DNA of 64,000 nt from an uncultured bacterium (GCA_902802585.1 CADCMR010000001.1:3223-67222); one strand, 5' to 3'; shown: positions 5,053 to 54,726, counted from the first letter of the stretch. The notes: generated from the letters alone by a model not told the origin. Numbers and translations are program-made.

Positions 5053-5889
5053 TCAGCGCGCTTCGGATGCCCTCATCCGGGCAATCTCCGCCGCGTAGCC
5101 GTCCAGCTCGTTCGGCGTTTCGAGCTCAATCGGGAGACCACGTACCGGTTCCAGCGATACGAAGCGTGCGAGAGCCTCGAATCCGATCTCGCCCTCGTCG
5201 AGCCTCGCGTGGCGGTCCTTGTGCGACCCGAACGGCATCATGGAGTCGTTCAGGTGAATGGCTTTCAGACGGTCGAGCCCGACGATCCGGTCGAACTCCT
5301 CCAGCACGGCTTCCGGCTCGTTCACGATGTCGTATCCGGCGCAGAAGACGTGGCAGGTATCCAGGCAGACGCCAAGCAGGTCGCCGTATTTGGAACGCGA
5401 CATGATTTCCGACAGTTCTTCGAATCTTGAACCGACCTCGGATCCCTTGCCGGACATCGTTTCCAGCAGCACCACCGGTTTCAAGTCCCGGTCCATGACC
5501 AGGTCCAGCGTCTCCGCGATCAGCTCAATGCCGCGTTCGACCCCCTGTCCGACATGGCTGCCCGGATGGAAGTTGTAGTAGACGCGGTCCACAGGGAACC
5601 GATCCAGCAACTCCAGGTCGCTGCGCATGACCTCCCGCGCGAACCGCAGGGTGTTTTCAACAGCCGCGCATGGGTTCAACGTGTACGGGGCGTGCGCGAC
5701 CGCGGGCGCGAAATCGTGTTCGCGCAGAAAAACGCCGAGTTCGGCGAGTTCCTCGTCCGGCGGAACGCGTCCCGATCCGCCGCGCGGATTGCGCGTGAAA
5801 AACTGGAACGTGTCGGCGCCTACGGCAAGCGCGTCCGCGCAGAGCTGGCGGTAGCCGCCCGCCACGGACAAATGACAGCCTATGTGCAT
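5053..5889 (-). CDS. nfo: Endonuclease IV (AP endonuclease)
   Basis: MHIGCHLS, FTRNPR, HAPY, FHPGSH, LETMSGKGSE, CLDTCH, HLNDS, DRHA motifs; start moved to MHIG. Confidence 0.95.
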   Translation of the reverse strand: MHIGCHLSVAGGYRQLCADALAVGADTFQFFTRNPRGGSGRVPPDEELAELGVFLREHDFAPAVAHAPYTLNPCAAVENTLRFAREVMRSDLELLDRFPVDRVYYNFHPGSHVGQGVERGIELIAETLDLVMDRDLKPVVLLETMSGKGSEVGSRFEELSEIMSRSKYGDLLGVCLDTCHVFCAGYDIVNEPEAVLEEFDRIVGLDRLKAIHLNDSMMPFGSHKDRHARLDEGEIGFEALARFVSLEPVRGLPIELETPNELDGYAAEIARMRASEAR

Positions 5890-6028: not shown

Positions 6029-6625
6029 TTATTTGAACTTGTAATCGGGAGTCGCGGGAGAACCTTCGACCTTGAGGTCCTTCGTGACTTTCCACCAGCC
6101 GTTGGTGTCGCCGGAACCGGCACTGTTCGCAACGCCGACGGAACCGTCGCCGCGGACGAAACGACCGGTGGAGCTGTGGTTGTCAGCGCCGTCAGCGCAG
6201 ACCGGGGAGATGGTGGCGTTGCCGCCCATGAGGGCGTCGACCCAGTTGTAGGAGACGTTGGAGGAGTCGAGAACCTTGTTCGGCTGCGCGGTGGTCATGC
6301 CGCCCTTGGAGGGGCAGAGGAAGCCCTTCGGGTCGGTCAGGAGATCCTGGGAGCGGAGGAGGTCGAGGTCCTGATAGCTGTTGCCGGCCATCCATTTCGG
6401 CTTCGGGCTCTTGCCGGTCTGGGTGGTGGGATAGTAGTCATCATAGCTCATGGCATACTGGAAGAAGGCTTTGCCGATCTGGGAAAGCTTGCTGGTGCAG
6501 TCTGCCTGTTTGGCTTTTTCCTTGGCCTGGTTGAGGGCGGGGAGGAGCATGCCGGCGAGGATGGCGATGATCGCGATCACGACGAGGAGCTCGATCAGGG
6601 TGAAGCCTTTGTCTTTTTGTTTCAT
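6029..6625 (-). CDS. PVC-type prepilin-like protein (N-methylation motif, H-X9-DG domain)
   Basis: [26 protein letters not shown]; C-terminal [12 protein letters not shown]. Confidence 0.85.
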
Positions 6626-32357: not shown

Positions 32358-32476
32358 GATGCAGTCCTGTTCCGTCCGCTGTTTGCGTTTTGATTGTATA
32401 AAATACATCCGGCGAAAACGTTTTTCAAGCCGTTTTTTGCAGGAAAACACCCCCTTTTTGTTCTTTTTTTGCTCAA

Positions 32477-32803
32477 CCTCGCGTGCGCACACACAAGTTT
32501 CAGTAAAAACAGTACCTTTTACTGAAACTTGAGGAAAATCCTGTCTTTACTCCTCCTTCTTTCCTTTCAAAATGCGTTTTCCCGGCACTTGCGACCAAAG
32601 ACAAACTATTTACACCAGCCGCATCATCACGGATCATCAGCCTCGCATGCGCACACACAAGTTTCAGTAAAAACAGTACCTTCTACTGAAACTTGATGGA
32701 AAATCCTGTCTTTACTCCTCCTTCTTTCCTTTCAAAATGCGTTTTCCCGGCACTTACGACCAAAGACAAACTGTTTACACCAGCTGCATCTTCACGGACA
32801 GCA
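32477..32803. repeat. Head-to-tail tandem duplication of a 164-bp unit containing a 15-bp palindrome
   Basis: Copy 1 at 32477-32640 and copy 2 from 32641, near identical; CAAGTTTCAGTAAAA-8nt-TTTTACTGAAACTTG at 32494-32531 (one mismatch in copy 2). Confidence 0.95.
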
Positions 32804-44186: not shown

Positions 44187-45119
44187 TCAGTTGTCGTCGG
44201 TGGGGTCGATCGTCCACATGTTGTGGTCGGGAGCGTCGTAAATGGTTTCGTGTCCCTGACGGATCGTCGCGCCGGGGTGCATCATGGCGACGTGTCCGTC
44301 GCAGAAGAGGTAGTTCCAGCTGTGGTTGTGGAGGGATCTCGGGGACATGTAGTCGGACTTCGGGATCTTGTTTTCAGAAGCTACGCGGAAGTCTCTGCCG
44401 CCCTGGTCGACGCCCCATTCCGCGTAGATGCCGAGCGTCTGCGTGCAGGCGGCGGACATGGCGCTGTAGGTGGCGGTGACGAATCCGAGGTCGCCGCGGG
44501 TCATGGGCGCCCACTCGGCGAGGAGGATGGTGCGTGTCGGCATGGGAACCATGGTCTTTCTTGTGGCCTTGAACGGATTATTGATCCATGCAAGGGTTCT
44601 GCCGTCCGAGCCGGAGGCGTGGCTCATGCCGAAGGAGCGGAGCGGGAATTCATCCTTCGCGCCGGAATAACGCGGAATGTTGTCGGCCGGGCAGGCGAAG
44701 ATTTTGATGCTCTGGAATTTTGAGCCTTTCTTCCGGATGCTCTGGTCCGGCGTGCCGCTGGTGCCGAGTTTCTCGACAACGTCTTTCATGTTCGGGAGAT
44801 AGGCGATGAGGGCGCGGTCCCAGTAGGAGTCGCAGGAAATGCCGCCGGAATAGTCATATTTGAACGAGGCTTTGCCGGTGGCGGGCATGTAATACTGCGT
44901 GTCGTTCGAGTACATCATGGCGAGCGTGCCGAGCTGCTTGGCGCTGTTCGTGCAGCCCGCCGCCATCGCGGACTTGCGGGCGGACTGAAGCGCGGGCAGG
45001 AGCATTGCGGCGAGGATGCCGATGATTGCCACCACGATCAGGAGTTCGATCAGGGTGAATTCATGTCTGGTGCGTGTTTCTTGAGCTGGGGCGAGGCGGG
45101 ATACGGTCTCGTGTTTCAT
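44187..45119 (-). CDS. PVC-type prepilin-like protein (H-X9-DG domain)
   Basis: [27 protein letters not shown]; CPAD; [14 protein letters not shown]. Confidence 0.85.
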
Positions 45120-47774: not shown

Positions 47775-48806
<1,032 letters not shown>

Positions 48807-48846
48807 TTAAGGCTGGGAATGGTTTTCAAAAAGTTCAAATGCTATA

Positions 48847-48874
48847 AATATAGCACGCTTTTAGAAATTTACAA
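48847..48874 (-). promoter_or_regulatory. gap operon promoter
   Basis: TTGTAA-16nt-TATATT with TG. Confidence 0.6.
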
Positions 48875-48949
48875 GCTAAAAGGGATAAATTCGATAAAAA
48901 AATATCGGATTGCGCCTCGCGCGTGAGATAAAATGAGGGAAAGATGACT

Positions 48950-49252
48950 CCGGACCGTCCGCTTTTGTCCGTCGACCGTTGTCCCCGACGACTCAAAACT
49001 CTGTCTCCTGCGCTGGCTCCACCGTGCTCTCGCGCAGCAGAGCACAACTTCAGTGGAGACCCAGCCTCCCGCGTCTGTGCGGACAACGAATGCTTCTTCT
49101 TAATACCATTTGCCGTTCGCGTCTCAGCGGTCATTGATGCCATTCCCCAAAAAACTGCTGTTTGCGTCACGCGGTCATGAGAAAACTGTCGAGCGTGAGC
49201 GAGTTTTCCGAGGCGGCAGAGCCGCCCCCAGCAACGCGTGGACGCAAACGCG
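48950..49252. repeat. Left palindromic (REP-like) cluster and left arm of the inverted repeat flanking the adhesin gene
   Basis: Nested hairpins (GTGCTCT/AGAGCAC, CTCCAC/GTGGAG, CGTTGTCC/GGACAACG); blocks 49111-49121, 49182-49217 and 49224-49252 are reverse complements of blocks at 53207-53345. Confidence 0.8.
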
Positions 49253-49277
49253 TACTTCCCGACAAGGTATCAGGCTG

Positions 49278-52200
49278 TTACAGGCTTGCGAGGATGCCCT
49301 TGCCGGATTCCTCGAAGATGCGTTCCGAGGTAGCGTCAAAGAACGCGCCTATGCCGGACAACGCGGCGAACTGATCGGAACCGTCGTCACCGAGCTTGAG
49401 CGTGACCCTGTCCGCCGCGATGCCGGAGACCGTGACGCTGTTGTCGCCGTCGGTGTAGGTCAGCGTGGAAGCGTCCCACTTCGATTCGTCGCCCGATGCG
49501 AACCACAACGTGACCTTGCCGGTGGCGAGTTGTTCGACGGTATCAGTACCCCAGTTCTCGCCGAACGTGAAGATATCTTCTCCACCGCCACCGTGCAAGC
49601 GGTCATTTCCAATGCCACCAGCGATCACATCGTTGCCGGAGGCACCGACAATGCGATCGTTTCCTGCATCACCGAACAAGAGATTGCCGCCCTTGTTTGC
49701 CCAGATGACGTCGTTTCCGTCGCCGCCACGAATCGTGAGGCCATCGCCGACGTATTCGAAGCGCTGGCTGGTCATGTCAACGATATCATCGCCGAAGCCG
49801 GCACGGATTTCGTCAATCCGGGCGATGCGCGCCTGCTGTTCCGCGATCGAACCCGGCAGGTCGGTATAGATGTCGTCCACGAAGAGCGAGTCGCCGTTCT
49901 CATCGTCGCTCATCAGCAGGATGTTCGTGTCGTCCGAACCTTCGATGATGTCCGCGAGTTTGTTTTTGCCGTAGAGCCCGGCGTATTCATTGGTCCCGCC
50001 CCAATCGCCGATGGATCCGGCGTGCTGCGCCAGATAGCCGGATTCCCAGGTGCCGACGGCGTTCGCGAAAAACACGTCCGCGTTGCCGTCCGCGTCGGAT
50101 TTGACGAGCTGCGGCGCATCGCCCGTTTCCTCGGAAACGATGGGATCGCCGGTCAGCCATTCGTCGCTGTCTTCCTGCTTGACGCGCATCTGATAGGTCC
50201 CGCCCGGCATGCGGAAGGCGTCGAGCGAAGGCGTCGTGACCGCAAATGTGATGATATGTTCGAAATTGTCCGCGCTGTATTCCACGGTGTACGGCTTGAA
50301 CCCGGACACGGTGAACGCTTCTCCGGCGGTCACGGCCGATTCGTTGCCCGCGAAGTCAACCGCCTGCACGCTCCAGCTGTAGTCGCCGAAATCGGCGTTG
50401 TTCAGTACATAATTCGTATTGCTCGTCCTGACAGTGAACTCCTGCTCGTCGAGCGAGTACGTCACGACATACTCCTTCACACCGGAGGAATCGTCCATGC
50501 TCACGTCCCAGACCAGGGCGACCTTTTGCCCCGACACGATCGTGTCCAGCCCGGCAGGTGCCGTGGGCGCCACGTTGTCAATATTCGTGACCGTACAGCT
50601 TGCGATTTCGGATTCGTTGCCTGCTGTGTCGATCGCCTTGAAAAAGACGGTACCATTTTCGTAAAAGGTCACGCCACCGTCAGGATAATCCAACCACAAC
50701 CCGTTGTCCCCGAGTTTATAGAGAGAGGTCGCCACATCGACGTCGTCCGCGAATTCGGCGGTCACGGTCACGGATTTTGCGGGGCCCGTGGTACTCGCCA
50801 CGACATTGCTGATGACGGGGGCCGTTGTGTCAATATTCCCGAACGTGATTTCCGCAGTTCCGGTATTCCCTGCGGCATCGGTCGCCTGGAAATGATACGT
50901 TCCGTTAGACTTGACTTCAAAAGACCCGGTATATTCCGTCAACTCGGAATCCCCGATGCGATAGTATATTTTGCTGCCGTCATCCACGGTTGCGGTCAAT
51001 GTGCTCTTCTGAAGCGGCGTCCGGTTGTCGCCGGCAAGCGTGACCACAGGTTTGATCTTATCAATGTTCGTGACCTCGTAACTTGCCTCGGCGGTGTTCT
51101 CCGAGGTATCGACTGCCTTGAAATACACGGTCGTGTTTTCGGTCACGGTTATACCGTTTTTATAATCCGTCCAGGTTCCGTTTCCCCCGATCTTGTACTG
51201 CGAGGAAGCCAGCTCCACATTGTCGGAGAAGGTCGCGGTCACGATAACGTCCTGGTTGGTGGGCTCAGTGATGCTGGCCGTGATGTCGCTGATGGTCGGT
51301 GCGGTCGTGTCAGGTGCTTGCACAACCAATAATAAGGTCGATTCGTTCAAATTCAGAGAGTATTTGGTATCATTGACAATGATGGTTTCCCCGGGAGTGA
51401 GCGTACCGAGCGATTCCACATTGTTCTGAACAGTAATAGTTTGGTTGAATCCTTCCGCGCCCTCTGCAAGTACGTAGATGCCCCTCTCCTGAGTGTCGGA
51501 AACCGTGAGTCCATAGATTACAGAGCCTTGAATCTTAATGCGCGAGAGATCATTGACTCTCGCTTCTGCACCTGAAGTGAGCTCGGAAATGTCGAAGGTG
51601 ATCCTTGCCCCGCTGAACATTGATACAACAGCTCCATCTTCAATCGTTGTTTGTCCCATGATCCCGCCGCCGGAACTGATCAGAAAAGAACCTCCGGATC
51701 TGACAGTTGTGTTATTTGCGCGGCCAATGGCATCGACAATGACACAACCTCCTGAACTGATCATTGTGTTATTCAACCTGCCACCATAAATGATACCTTT
51801 GGTTCCACTCGCTAATACTTTTCCTCCATAGTACACTGTCGTATCGTTCGCCGTGCCACCAGAGTAAACGATACAGGAACCTCCAGAACTAATAATTGTA
51901 CTGTTCGCGATGCCGCTAACATTTACTTTTAATTCGCCTCCATAGCTGATAACGGTATTATTTACTGTTCCCTCGACATCCATCCAACTATCTGATTTGA
52001 CTGTAGTGTTGTTTGCTATACCGTGGGAAAGGACAGAAAAAAAAGTGCTTGAACTGACCGTGATGTCGGTTGCTGTGCCGCCGGATTCAATAGTAAGATT
52101 GGCAGGGCCATCCGGGGTGCCTATGACAGTGGTGCTGGTCACCACTCCGCCGCTTGAAATAAAGCAACTCCCGCCGTTGACGGTATAATTTGACACGATG

Positions 52201-52616
52201 CCATCTTTGATCTCGAAAACTGAACTGCCGGAAGTGCCGGTAATATAGGTGTCTTTCGCCACGTAGAAGATCAGACGTGCTCCAGAGCTAACTCTAATAT
52301 CGGTAGCCGTTCCTCCGCTGGAGACATAAAATAAGCCTTTGGAGTTGACCGTAGTATTGTTTGCTATTCCCCCGGAGAAAATATGCATTTCTCCACAGAA
52401 ATTGACCTTGGTGATATTAGCCGTGCCGCCGCTGGAGACATACATGTAGCCGGCTGAATTAATTGTAGTACTAAGAACGGTGCCGTTGTCTTTGACATAG
52501 AGAATGCCTCTGGAATTGAGCGTGGTACTGTTTGCCCCACCACCACTGTGAACCGTCATGGAATCGTATTGTAGCGTCCACCCACTAGCAACATCACCAT
52601 CTGTAACATACCACAT
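49278..52616 (-). CDS. Large surface protein: AIDA-like repeats + Ig-like/FN3 repeats + C-terminal RTX Ca-binding nonapeptides
   Basis: Many xSGGxAxxTxV repeats; repeated DTTAP/DKIKP Ig-like units; FN3-like APTAPAGL; GGDGNDVI, GDAGNDRI, GGIGNDRL; no signal peptide; start moved to MWYVT after the AAAGGAG RBS. Confidence 0.85.
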   Translation of the reverse strand: MWYVTDGDVASGWTLQYDSMTVHSGGGANSTTLNSRGILYVKDNGTVLSTTINSAGYMYVSSGGTANITKVNFCGEMHIFSGGIANNTTVNSKGLFYVSSGGTATDIRVSSGARLIFYVAKDTYITGTSGSSVFEIKDGIVSNYTVNGGSCFISSGGVVTSTTVIGTPDGPANLTIESGGTATDITVSSSTFFSVLSHGIANNTTVKSDSWMDVEGTVNNTVISYGGELKVNVSGIANSTIISSGGSCIVYSGGTANDTTVYYGGKVLASGTKGIIYGGRLNNTMISSGGCVIVDAIGRANNTTVRSGGSFLISSGGGIMGQTTIEDGAVVSMFSGARITFDISELTSGAEARVNDLSRIKIQGSVIYGLTVSDTQERGIYVLAEGAEGFNQTITVQNNVESLGTLTPGETIIVNDTKYSLNLNESTLLLVVQAPDTTAPTISDITASITEPTNQDVIVTATFSDNVELASSQYKIGGNGTWTDYKNGITVTENTTVYFKAVDTSENTAEASYEVTNIDKIKPVVTLAGDNRTPLQKSTLTATVDDGSKIYYRIGDSELTEYTGSFEVKSNGTYHFQATDAAGNTGTAEITFGNIDTTAPVISNVVASTTGPAKSVTVTAEFADDVDVATSLYKLGDNGLWLDYPDGGVTFYENGTVFFKAIDTAGNESEIASCTVTNIDNVAPTAPAGLDTIVSGQKVALVWDVSMDDSSGVKEYVVTYSLDEQEFTVRTSNTNYVLNNADFGDYSWSVQAVDFAGNESAVTAGEAFTVSGFKPYTVEYSADNFEHIITFAVTTPSLDAFRMPGGTYQMRVKQEDSDEWLTGDPIVSEETGDAPQLVKSDADGNADVFFANAVGTWESGYLAQHAGSIGDWGGTNEYAGLYGKNKLADIIEGSDDTNILLMSDDENGDSLFVDDIYTDLPGSIAEQQARIARIDEIRAGFGDDIVDMTSQRFEYVGDGLTIRGGDGNDVIWANKGGNLLFGDAGNDRIVGASGNDVIAGGIGNDRLHGGGGEDIFTFGENWGTDTVEQLATGKVTLWFASGDESKWDASTLTYTDGDNSVTVSGIAADRVTLKLGDDGSDQFAALSGIGAFFDATSERIFEESGKGILASL

Positions 52617-52888
52617 ATCAAGTTCTCCTTTTGTTGTTGAGTTGTTTTCGTTTGGCTTAAAAATGAAGAGAAAAGACTTGTTGTCGGACACAACAAGCCA
52701 TCATGAAGGTCAGGTTCGAGGATGCACAAGAATGATTGTCTGAGATTGTGACGCGAAGATAGACGTGATTTGCCGGAAGAATAGTATTCCGGCTACGACG
52801 TATAGGAGAATAATGTCGGGACAATCAGACAAAAACATTGGCGAATCTCGGCTGGATGATTCCTGAGCACGAGGAAACGCCTGAGCAT

Positions 52889-52930
52889 AAAAAAGCCGGA
52901 CGCTACCCCGTGCGTGAACGTGTAGGTCCG
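52889..52930 (-). terminator. Possible leader terminator upstream of the adhesin gene
   Basis: CGGAC/GTCCG plus CTAC/GTAG imperfect stem followed by T6 on the minus strand, about 270 nt before the ATG. Confidence 0.35.
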
Positions 52931-53206
52931 ACCAAGAACCCGATTCAGAGACGACAGAGAAACGTCCAGCAAGGCATGAGGATACAATGCTCCTGCTGGT
53001 ATTTCTTTCTCGGAATCAAAAGAATCTTTAGAAAACTTGTTCGGTTCACACGTTCTTTTGATGAAATAACCGATGTAATGAGCTCGAAACCAGATTCCTG
53101 TAGGTCAGGAAAGGGATTCCAAACAACAATTTACATGCGATTAAGAATATTTCAAGCCCTTTTCCTTCTTTTTTGAGATATTTGCCTCTTTTGAGGAGAA
53201 ACTAGG

Positions 53207-53345
53207 ACGCGATGCGTCCCCGCGTTGCTGGGGGCACCGCAGGCGGTGTTGAGGTAGTGTCCGGCTCCGCTCGGACACGAGTTTGCGCCGCCTCGGAAAG
53301 CTCGCTACGCTCGACAGATTTTATTGCCGCGAAGCGCGAACGGCA
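53207..53345. repeat. Right arm of the inverted repeat flanking the adhesin gene
   Basis: 53207-53235, 53287-53322 and 53335-53345 match the left arm in reverse complement; the 51-bp insert holds hairpins CACCGC/GCGGTG and GTGTCCG/CGGACAC. Confidence 0.8.
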
Positions 53346-53466
53346 GAGGGTTGGCAGATACGGCGAATGTGACGGATAGGGCGAATGGGGACACCTTATT
53401 CTATCTCACTTGCCTCATGCGCCTTATCTCCCAAGGGGGGCGGGGTGGCCTTGATCGCCGGGAGGC

Positions 53467-54726
53467 TTACTTCGAGGTCAGGCGTTTCGCGGCGTCGCGG
53501 GCTTCGGCGACGATCTCCTCCTCGCCGTCGACGTGCCCGCCGCGCATCAGGATGCGTCCGTCGCAGATGAGCATGTCGATGCAGGAGCTGTCCGCGGCGT
53601 AGACCATGTCGGAGACGATGTTGAACCCGGGGACGAGGTTGTGGTTGTTCAGGTCGACGAGGATGCAGTCGGCGAGGCGACCCTCCTCGATCAAGCCCGC
53701 GTCGATGCCGAACGCCTCGGCTCCGGAGCGCGTGGCGGCGCGGAAGACGTCCGCCGCCTTCACCGCCTTCGGATCGCCGGTGAGGTCCTTCCCGCGGAGG
53801 GCGGCGGTCTTCATTTCGCCGATCATGGAGAGGGAATTGTTGGAGGACGCGCCGTCGGTGCCGAGCGCCCAGCGGCACTTATTGAAGAGCGCGGCGCTGT
53901 CGTAGCGGAAATGGCCGGAGACGAGCTTCATGTTCGAGACGGGCATGTGGACGAGCACGGAACGGCGTTCGGCGAGCAGCTCGATGTCCTCGTCGGTGAG
54001 GAACACGGAGTGCGCGAGGACGGTCCTGTCCGTGAGGATGCCGCAGCTGTCGACGTAGGCGGTCGGGGACATACCGTGCTGCTCCATGCAGTCGTCGAAC
54101 TCCTTTTTCGTCTCGGCGAGGTGCGTATGGATCATGAGGCCGTACTTTTTCGCCGTGTCCGCCACATCGCGCAGGATATCCTCGGTGGTTGTGTAGATCG
54201 CGTGCGGCGCGACGGCGATCTGGATACGGTCGGAAAGGTTGTCGCGGTTCTCCAGCAGCCAGTCGTTGTCGAGCATGGGGAGGAACGCCGGATTGCCCAT
54301 GGTCTGGCGCAGGATGCCGATGCAGGCGCGGACGCCCATTTCCTCGGCGGCGCGGACGACCTGGCGGCCCCGCCAGTACATGTCGTTGAAGAAGACGGTG
54401 CCGGACTTGATCATTTCGAGGATGGCGAGGCGCGTCCCGGCGTAGACGTCTTCGTTGGTGAGGCGCGCCTCGACGGGCCAGATGTGGTTGCTGAGCCAGT
54501 CGAAGAGGTCAAGGTCGTCGGCGAATCCGCGCAGGAGGGACATGGCGGCGTGGGTGTGTGCGTTGTAGAAAGCGGGGAGGATCGCCATCGCGCCGTGGGC
54601 GTCGAGGGTCTCGTCGGCGGGTTCGGCGGGCGCGGACTGGGAGATGCTTGTGAACCGGTTTCCGTCGATGCGGACGTTGACCGTGGAACCGTTAAGGACG
54701 ACATTGCGGAGGAGGATGCTTGACAT
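53467..54726 (-). CDS. mtaD: Amidohydrolase, MTA/S-adenosylhomocysteine deaminase-like
   Basis: NAHTH, MSLLRGFADDLDLFDWL...IWPVE, FNDMY, APHAIYT, HTHLAET, LGTDGASSNN. Confidence 0.8.
   Translation of the reverse strand: MSSILLRNVVLNGSTVNVRIDGNRFTSISQSAPAEPADETLDAHGAMAILPAFYNAHTHAAMSLLRGFADDLDLFDWLSNHIWPVEARLTNEDVYAGTRLAILEMIKSGTVFFNDMYWRGRQVVRAAEEMGVRACIGILRQTMGNPAFLPMLDNDWLLENRDNLSDRIQIAVAPHAIYTTTEDILRDVADTAKKYGLMIHTHLAETKKEFDDCMEQHGMSPTAYVDSCGILTDRTVLAHSVFLTDEDIELLAERRSVLVHMPVSNMKLVSGHFRYDSAALFNKCRWALGTDGASSNNSLSMIGEMKTAALRGKDLTGDPKAVKAADVFRAATRSGAEAFGIDAGLIEEGRLADCILVDLNNHNLVPGFNIVSDMVYAADSSCIDMLICDGRILMRGGHVDGEEEIVAEARDAAKRLTSK

Follow-up and report, generated by a model that had tools for sequence, protein, structure and literature searches.

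A strain-variable adhesin gene framed by inverted copies of a mosaic intergenic repeat in rumen Victivallales

The adhesin locus

The adhesin gene described here lies in a 64,000-nt stretch of DNA from an uncultured bacterium, the window, to which all coordinates given without a contig label and the chance and copy counts for this DNA refer. The window is identical in sequence to bovine rumen metagenome scaffold L010; this and similar labels (L002, L005, L060 and so on) denote compared contigs or loci from related genomes. The genes of the locus, pgk, gap, the adhesin gene and an mtaD-like amidohydrolase gene, are all on the minus strand. The adhesin gene is framed by two copies of an intergenic repeat, the ABC repeat, of which one lies upstream in the sense orientation and the other downstream and inverted. 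The same bracket surrounds accessory genes of other kinds elsewhere, and the region between mtaD and gap differs from strain to strain in what it carries. As proposed by an earlier reading of the sequence (the first-pass annotation), the framed DNA holds one large adhesin open reading frame (ORF) between gap and mtaD, and a Pfam scan of the window proteins finds no recombinase or transposase domain within this cassette or beside it. There is also no tRNA within the window as a possible integration target. The features of the locus are as follows.

47775..48776, minus strand: gap (GAPDH; Pfam), the conserved downstream flank of the cassette site
48777 to about 48970, minus strand: gap promoter region, common to all alleles in the alignment
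48977..49104, no strand assigned: outer downstream mosaic segment, within the insertion and outside the inverted repeat, without counterpart at empty sites
49105..49135, plus strand: extra outer copy of box A (ACCATTTGCCGTTCGCGTCTCAGCGGTCA), recognised as an inverted-repeat pair, block 1 of the first-pass annotation
49146..49257, plus strand: left (downstream, inverted) arm, nhmmer E 1.7e-27, which pairs as an inverted repeat with the right arm
49278..52616, minus strand: gene for an AIDA-repeat / CHB_HEX_C_1 / RTX protein of 1112 aa (Pfam)
52675..52699, minus strand: second terminator-like hairpin (10 pairs and a T run), predicted by consensus match only, about 60 nt before the adhesin ATG
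52880..53122, minus strand: structured leader RNA of about 240 nt, predicted from conservation and covariation, ending in a hairpin plus T7 terminator
53128..53155, minus strand: predicted sigma-70-like promoter TTGAAA-16-TAAATT (consensus match), directly after the right arm
53204..53352, minus strand: right (upstream, sense) arm, nhmmer E 7.5e-19 with the 19-copy profile
53257..53278, no strand assigned: H1-type hairpin GTGTCCG-GCTCCGCT-CGGACAC, situated within the loop that the GGCGGC hairpin of the arm forms
53353..53466, minus strand: outer upstream mosaic segment, within the insertion and outside the inverted repeat, without counterpart at empty sites
53467..54726, minus strand: mtaD-like amidohydrolase gene (Pfam Amidohydro_1, E 3.5e-61), the conserved upstream flank

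The ABC repeat

The inverted repeats around the adhesin gene are real and non-random. All three of the collinear blocks that had been reported across about 4 kb were recovered: 49105-49121 with 53335-53351 (17 nt, 88% identity), 49182-49196 plus 49198-49217 with 53287-53321 (93-95%), and 49224-49246 with 53213-53235 (23 nt, 96%). For the two longer blocks, 0.03 and 0.00 matches are expected by chance in the whole window versus 2 observed each, and 2 matches were reached in 0 of 100 shuffles. The pairing of the first block is likewise real, but its left partner is the extra outer box A rather than the left arm's own box A (49155-49178). Hairpins with GCTNCGC loops had been described at both ends. 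Two clean ones are present, 49024-49045 (gtgctctCGCGCAGCagagcac) and 53257-53278 (gtgtccgGCTCCGCTcggacac), and these are the only hairpins in the 64 kb that combine a 7-bp stem with such a loop; the third, with the loop GCTACGC at about 53300, forms no clean hairpin and falls within box B. One correction concerns the right arm, which holds an insertion of about 50 bp (53236-53286) that contains the 53257-53278 hairpin.

The arms belong to a palindrome-rich family, as had been suspected, since the same unit was recovered in other metagenome-assembled genomes (MAGs) of rumen Victivallales. The general unit is about 115 bp long and consists of box A (consensus TGCCGTTCGCGYCTCGCGGT), an A-rich spacer, box B (TGYCGAGCGNRAGCGAG), a GC hairpin, box C (CCCAGCAACGCG), a second hairpin (GGACGCNNCGCGTCC) and a T run. 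The right arm contains, in order, box A TGCCGTTCGCGCTTCGCGGCAA, box B CTGTCGAGCGTAGCGAGCTTTCC, the interrupted GGCGGC hairpin, box C CCCCAGCAACGCGGGGACGCATCGCGTCC and a T-rich tail. The left arm, which begins about 20 nt past the adhesin stop codon, has box A, box B, the hairpin GGCGGCAGAGCCGCC and a box C whose final hairpin is degenerate. At other loci, tandem arrays of box A with a period of about 57 bp are common. The stems of the GC hairpin covary among copies (GGCGGC/GCCGCC, GGCGCGC/GCGCGCC, GGCTCGC/GCGAGCC). Folded as a single RNA, each arm is no more stable than shuffled sequence (z = -1.8 and -1.1); the predicted folding signal resides in the individual hairpins, not in one long structure.

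Small modules accompany the unit: H1 hairpins, H2 hairpins and a 70-bp module, M0. In other copies H1 takes the form GTGCTTG-AGCGNAGC-CAAGCAC, with covarying stems and a constant loop, AGCGNAGC, and the variant of the GC hairpin that carries an H1 insertion is also present in the downstream arm of L060. The outer upstream segment starts directly after the mtaD stop codon with a palindromic motif, GCCTCCCGGCG, which is followed by M0 (GATAAGGCGCATGAGGCAAGTGAGATAGAATAAGGTGTCCCCATTCGCCCTATCCGTCACATTCGCCGTATC), and it matches L060 at 95%, L002 at 92% and the unrelated locus L015 at 85%. The outer downstream segment carries H1 (49024-49045) and H2 (GGAGACCCAGCCTCC, 49055-49069), and this H2-H1 module is inverted relative to the one at the same position in L002 and L047 (score 32 inverted and 14 direct, with a shuffle maximum of 25). 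A resemblance between M0 and the region upstream of gap was considered and failed the shuffle test that was also applied to the cassette ends (below).

A profile built from 19 copies (nhmmer) finds exactly two matches in the 64 kb, both at the adhesin gene. The exact 22-mer of box C, from the innermost block, occurs at 17 places in 8 rumen Victivallales/Lentisphaeria MAGs, and all 17 copies keep the order A, B, hairpin, C. The tally thus stands at 8 MAGs at least, with up to 5 exact box C matches per MAG, figures that are not whole-genome counts; two further matches to the 22-mer, in Planctomycetota genes, were judged to be chance. The repeat is absent from about 500 kb around the mtaD homologues of more distant bacteria, and neither box C nor a motif of the leader RNA is present in IMG/VR viral contigs; a phage origin was rejected. 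The ABC repeat is a lineage-specific intergenic mosaic family of rumen Victivallales (Lentisphaerota).

A bracket around diverse accessory genes

A sense copy upstream and an inverted copy downstream frame one or two co-oriented accessory genes at 11 independent sites, and beyond these the same bracket is seen in 5 alleles of the mtaD-gap site. Thus, the idea that the family brackets genes as inverted pairs is borne out at many loci. At nearly every locus with enough sequence, a second, inverted copy is found 0.7-4 kb from the first. The bracket has a fixed polarity: the C ends point inward, and the reading direction of the enclosed gene is in every case from the sense copy toward the inverted one. 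The upstream sense copy is usually fused to a promoter and often also to a leader RNA of about 240 nt. At the 11 sites the cargo includes two N6-methylase restriction-modification genes, a PD-(D/E)XK nuclease, a TM2 protein, Sel1/zinc-ribbon proteins, ankyrin proteins, adhesins and several unknowns.

This recurrence bears on the simplest account of the two arms, that they are unrelated insertions of an abundant REP-like repeat and that their pairing means nothing. In a dispersed, palindrome-rich family either orientation would be expected. However, the window has only two copies and both are at this gene, inward-facing pairs with the polarity of the cargo recur at 11 other sites, and both arms are missing together at empty sites. 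We consider a meaningless pairing very improbable.

The first-pass annotation had tied the repeat to adhesin or other surface-protein genes, and this part of it does not hold. Only 3 of the 17 copies in other genomes have an adhesin homologue within 8 kb (tblastn), and the cargo is diverse. Among four loci of adhesin paralogues, one has both arms, but one has the upstream arm and the leader, one the leader only, and one nothing. On the 3/17 count and this mixed arm content, an association of the family with adhesins was rejected.

Two other loci should be mentioned here. At L019 (4446-4874), arm copies lie back to back, one sense and three inverted, with no gene between them; this may be an empty frame or the scar of cargo loss. 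At L111 (9363-10733), a gene for a tyrosine recombinase of 456 aa (Phage_integrase) is convergent to, and directly follows, the gene for an adhesin paralogue of 1758 aa, which has the leader RNA and no ABC arms.

Presence, absence and replacement at the mtaD-gap site

The site was compared among contigs that have the same GAPDH or an mtaD of 82-92% identity. The mtaD-like gene is well kept, at 89-92% identity, across more than 20 related contigs irrespective of what comes next. The empty site that the first-pass annotation suggested looking for was found in 11 contigs, in which mtaD is directly followed by gap at a distance of 166-253 bp and neither arm is present. In another contig, a remnant of 468 bp carries a single box A. 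Where the site is occupied, it carries one of five adhesin alleles (that of the window and L010, the L002 type, the L005 type, L029 and L113) or unrelated cargo, namely an ankyrin-repeat protein (L047), a 315-aa unknown (L060) or an FkbH-MBOAT operon (L032). Thus, the mtaD-gap intergenic region is a hot spot for cassettes, with both presence/absence and replacement polymorphism. According to the first-pass annotation, its reading would fail if the repeats were scattered without regard to adhesins and structural variation was lacking; the repeats are so scattered, but variation between strains is clear.

Homology to the empty sites ends at 53466, right after the mtaD stop codon, and at about 48971-48980. 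These break positions indicate that the inserted DNA includes further mosaic modules outside the arms. The arms had been taken for the ends of the inserted DNA, as in a MITE-like pair. Instead, the indel extends beyond them by 115 and 133 bp, and a target duplication is lacking: the flanking direct repeat at the ends of the window cassette is not significant (its score of 14 was equalled in 223 of 500 shuffles), and with it a target-site duplication or att-like repeat was rejected for the window. The L002 cassette, by contrast, has a 23-bp direct repeat, GACAANNNCGNACCGCCCGGCGG, at 1517-1540 and 5138-5161 (0 of 500 shuffles as good), and most occupied alleles also have the palindromic core of this repeat, CCGCCCGGCGG, after the mtaD stop codon. 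Some cassettes at the site are one-armed, with the upstream arm missing from L047 and the downstream arm from L005 and L115.

Breakpoints between alleles also fall within the arm and within the gene. From mtaD onward through M0, box A and box B, the window matches L060 at 95.5% identity, until the two diverge at 53291, inside the arm. With L002 and L113 the window shares no more than 1.4 kb at the 3' end of the adhesin gene and the downstream arm.

The adhesin gene

DNA homology to the L002 and L113 alleles begins only at 50585 and 50522, and this limit matches a drop in GC content in the 5' part of the gene. The GC content is 43-50% in 51400-52900, which covers the 5' third of the gene and the leader, whereas the 3' part has 58-62% and the genes on either side 60-68%. 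The AIDA repeats, of 19 aa (57 bp), sit in 51400-52900, exactly where homology to the other alleles is lost. By its composition and homology, the adhesin gene is a mosaic, low in GC and variable toward the 5' end and conserved toward the 3' end. At E<=1e-20 the protein has 852 homologues, which carry the name AIDA repeat-containing protein in Lentisphaeria, and the adhesin belongs to a very large Lentisphaeria-specific expansion.

The protein resembles RTX adhesins of type I secretion systems that have an AIDA-type passenger, in that AIDA strand-loop-strand repeats are combined with C-terminal RTX nonapeptides. Pfam places HemolysinCabind at residues 1016-1044 of the 1137-aa ORF, and the N terminus, MWYVTDGDVASGW, has no signal-like segment; calcium-binding nonapeptides near the C terminus and the lack of an N-terminal signal peptide are the marks of RTX proteins secreted by the type I route. 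Unlike in the autotransporter AIDA adhesins, no beta-barrel translocator domain was found, the domains recognised by Pfam being AIDA, CHB_HEX_C_1 and HemolysinCabind only, and a type Va autotransporter was ruled out. Because it has no autotransporter barrel, the adhesin is probably a type I secretion substrate.

The promoter and the leader RNA

The AT-rich leader that had been noted in the cassette is present, and it holds a predicted promoter and a structured RNA with its terminator. The promoter is kept in other copies as TTGATT-16-TAAATT (alignment). The leader is 73-81% identical at 14 other loci, with copies in L014, L017, L018, L020, L022, L025, L027, L028, L029, L031, L032, L111 and L115 among others. 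Of 63 predicted pairs in its fold, 22 have compensatory changes, and 94.9% of cells pair; shuffles gave 84.4%, none of the 500 coming as high, and sliding the partners gave 32-49%. Rfam 15 has no match to the leader or the arms at E<=1 in 48700-53600, nothing at the gathering score in the window, and no match at E<=0.1 in six other leader copies. The idea that the stretch is a small protein gene was rejected, as several copies have stops in every frame and the conserved 'peptides' shift frame.

Rumen metatranscriptome contigs cover 52858-53096, and none extends over the promoter or the 370 nt downstream. This pattern is consistent with a discrete transcript, as far as contig data for a sequence with paralogues can indicate. 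A co-oriented ORF is found 40-300 nt downstream of every leader copy; the proteins encoded include four adhesins, several Sel1/zinc-ribbon proteins, TM2, FkbH and others. Judged by conservation and covariation, the RNA is perhaps a new leader or attenuator, or else a small RNA.

At 7314-7370 of L014 there is also a weak match to the fluoride riboswitch, which at 24.5 bits (E 0.012) stays below the gathering score of 34.

Possible inversion, proposed exchange and the role of the arms

Inverted repeats of 20-36 bp with 93-96% identity, separated by about 4 kb, could serve as a substrate for inversion, and the first-pass annotation had named an invertible cassette as a candidate. On that reading the adhesin segment would flip between the arms and act as a phase or antigenic switch. 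The adhesin gene is oriented like gap in all 10 assemblies that carry an adhesin allele here, and contigs from the source run are collinear with the window, although these are Logan contigs and uninformative for rare events. The 'joints' listed in them are short hairpin modules from other repeat copies. There is no recombinase within or beside the cassette, and the same bracket surrounds restriction-modification and housekeeping-like cargo. Moreover, the promoter and leader lie inside the arms together with the gene, so that flipping the whole unit would not switch expression. With the promoter inside the segment, a single orientation seen and no invertase nearby, an invertible adhesin switch is the least credible of the explanations considered here, and we regard it as extremely unlikely. 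What stands of the first-pass annotation overall is a repeat-framed, strain-variable cassette that encodes no enzyme; adhesin specificity and inversion do not.

The explanation toward which we lean, as somewhat more likely than not, is that the mtaD-gap region is a site of the minimal mobile element or NIME kind (see below), exchanged by homologous recombination, and that the arms act in transcription. Cassettes would be gained, lost and swapped by homologous recombination of imported DNA, for which the conserved flanking genes and the shared repeats would provide portable homology, with no need for a cassette-encoded enzyme. The upstream arm would stop incoming transcription before it reaches the cassette's own promoter, and the GC hairpins downstream would end or stabilise the cargo mRNA. 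We infer both the exchange and these roles from the arrangement of the alleles and the modules. The box C hairpin and T run of the right arm are flagged as terminator-like, and the promoter comes next.

Several observations weigh against this explanation. The breakpoints within arm and gene are compatible with homologous recombination in their positions only. At many loci the upstream neighbour is transcribed divergently, so that a role as upstream terminator cannot account for every sense copy. At other sites a distinct downstream subtype occurs that ends in CCCAGCGAAGCGG and lacks the last hairpin; this subtype and the strict polarity look more like design than like a passive stretch of homology, and they would also suit recognition sites of a recombinase. 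In addition, the 23-bp direct repeat of L002 is not predicted by homologous recombination.

Another account, which seems unlikely to us, gives the arms no part in gene movement and treats them as regulatory elements only, at the RNA or DNA level (bidirectional terminators, insulators or mRNA stabilisers), selected wherever accessory genes lie. It would fit the terminator-like box C hairpin and T run, the A runs before box A, which are T runs on the other strand, and the high depth at which RNA contigs cover the arm region. However, it leaves unexplained the homology breaks inside the arm and the absence of arms from the other approximately 50 genes of the window, and the sense copies often face a divergent neighbour.

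The other account of gene movement is that the framed unit is a non-autonomous cassette mobilised in trans by a host recombinase or transposase that reads the arms or the GC hairpin, much as XerC/D moves pdif modules on Acinetobacter plasmids or a RAYT moves REPINs. The framing of single genes with unrelated functions by a polar inverted pair, at many sites and in several genomes, speaks for such a system, as do the covarying hairpin stems, the arm pair without cargo at L019, and the 23-bp repeat at the ends of the L002 cassette; together, these keep alive a model in which a recombinase acts in trans, as at pdif sites. Allele breakpoints and the nested insertion also fall at the GGCGGC hairpin, the H2-H1 module occurs both ways round at one position, and dif modules, in which genes are framed by inverted sites and the enzyme is encoded elsewhere, offer a precedent (PMC6449649, PMC7399989). 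On the other side, the arms of the window lie inside the indel by the distances given above with no significant direct repeat, some cassettes at this site have a single arm, an identical cassette at two different sites has not been seen, viral contigs hold no copies of the repeat, and no candidate enzyme turned up, no dedicated RAYT search of the genomes having been made. We consider mobilisation in trans possible but doubtful.

Comparison with known systems

REPs of Proteobacteria are 20-40 nt long, have a conserved GTAG end, occur in hundreds of copies and lie mostly between convergent genes. Like REP/BIME and REPIN-RAYT elements, the ABC repeat is an extragenic, GC-rich, imperfect palindrome with covarying stems that forms mosaic clusters in both orientations, and roles in termination or mRNA stability, as for REP/BIME, are plausible. 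Unlike REPs, it brackets genes as polar pairs. Two copies lie in this 64 kb, and the exact box C matches per MAG were given above. Correia elements, MITEs and MITE-flanked composite units are non-coding units with inverted ends that may carry promoters or terminators and for which mobilisation in trans has been proposed. Here, in contrast, the window shows no target-site duplication, the ends of the indel lie outside the arms, and the arms are two whole copies rather than the ends of one element; a MITE or composite transposon does not fit. An integron cassette was rejected, as the arms are inverted pairs, the unit has its own promoter, and there is no adjacent integrase. An attC-like unit was dropped, since GTT...AAC runs with the opposite polarity to R''/R' and the copies form inverted pairs instead of arrays.

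The closest likeness is to Neisseria. There, pilC1, which some meningococcal strains have and others lack, is flanked by NIME arrays and a REP2 promoter repeat, and homologous recombination exchanges minimal mobile elements at positions between conserved genes (PMC3898611). In both cases modular arrays of short repeats flank a strain-variable gene for a surface adhesin, with a promoter repeat upstream (REP2/CREN in Neisseria). The mtaD-gap site also resembles a minimal mobile element in that different whole-gene cassettes alternate between two conserved genes and that the window cassette has no mobility gene inside. The differences are that the phylum is another one, the sequences are unrelated, and the ABC repeat is a fixed A-B-hairpin-C unit of about 115 bp in polar inverted pairs, whereas NIMEs consist of RS units and dRS3; the cargo here is mostly non-surface, and a 240-nt structured leader RNA comes with the promoter. 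In Neisseria dRS3 is a target for phage integrase, and no such target is known for the ABC repeat.

The pdif (Xer) modules of Acinetobacter plasmids similarly frame accessory genes with inverse sites and rely on an enzyme encoded elsewhere (PMC6449649, PMC7399989). Unlike those 28-bp XerC/XerD plasmid sites, the arms here are chromosomal and about 115 bp long, and no dif-like core was recognised in them, no comparison with a dif consensus of this lineage having been made.

Other observations in the window

An invariant palindrome, CCGATATTTTTTTATCG, lies at 48895-48925, upstream of the gap promoter, in every strain, with or without a cassette at the site, and probably serves a glycolytic regulator as its operator. 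At 32473-32800 there is an intergenic tandem duplication of 165 bp (92-96% identical), each copy of which holds a perfect hairpin (AAGTTTCAGTAAAA...TTTTACTGAAACTT); neither Rfam nor a tRNA matches there. The nine 12-bp units (CCGTAGCCATAG-like) that lie in tandem at 2443-2592 are probably a Tyr-Gly repeat encoded on the other strand. Two distant genes have in common a stretch of 71 nt (6534-6604 and 44989-45059, 85% identity), which probably encodes the hydrophobic N-terminal (prepilin-type) segment that their paralogous products share.

Implications for Victivallales

Lentisphaerota/Victivallales are common gut and rumen bacteria that are known almost only from MAGs. No paper on repetitive intergenic elements in Victivallales was found in the literature collection that was searched, and to that extent these bacteria are without described families of repeats, sites for cassettes or regulatory RNAs. 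It is tentatively conceivable, at about the same low probability as mobilisation in trans, that the locus represents an undescribed cassette system, in which a chromosomally encoded recombinase that reads the covarying GC hairpins moves or swaps framed units between chromosomal hot spots, with a leader RNA common to the units. If so, the unit would consist of a left arm made of the ABC repeat, the promoter and the leader RNA, an inverted right arm, and cargo of any function, and the shared leader with its terminator would place all cassettes under one attenuation or antitermination signal.

The locus shows Victivallales varying surface and defence genes by means of framed cassettes at hot spots between housekeeping genes. 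The pair of ABC repeats provides a concrete signature for finding accessory genes in fragmented assemblies, and the leader RNA, found ahead of an acyltransferase operon as well as of genes for adhesins and Sel1/zinc-ribbon proteins, offers a candidate for a new class of cis-regulatory RNA that can be put to the test.

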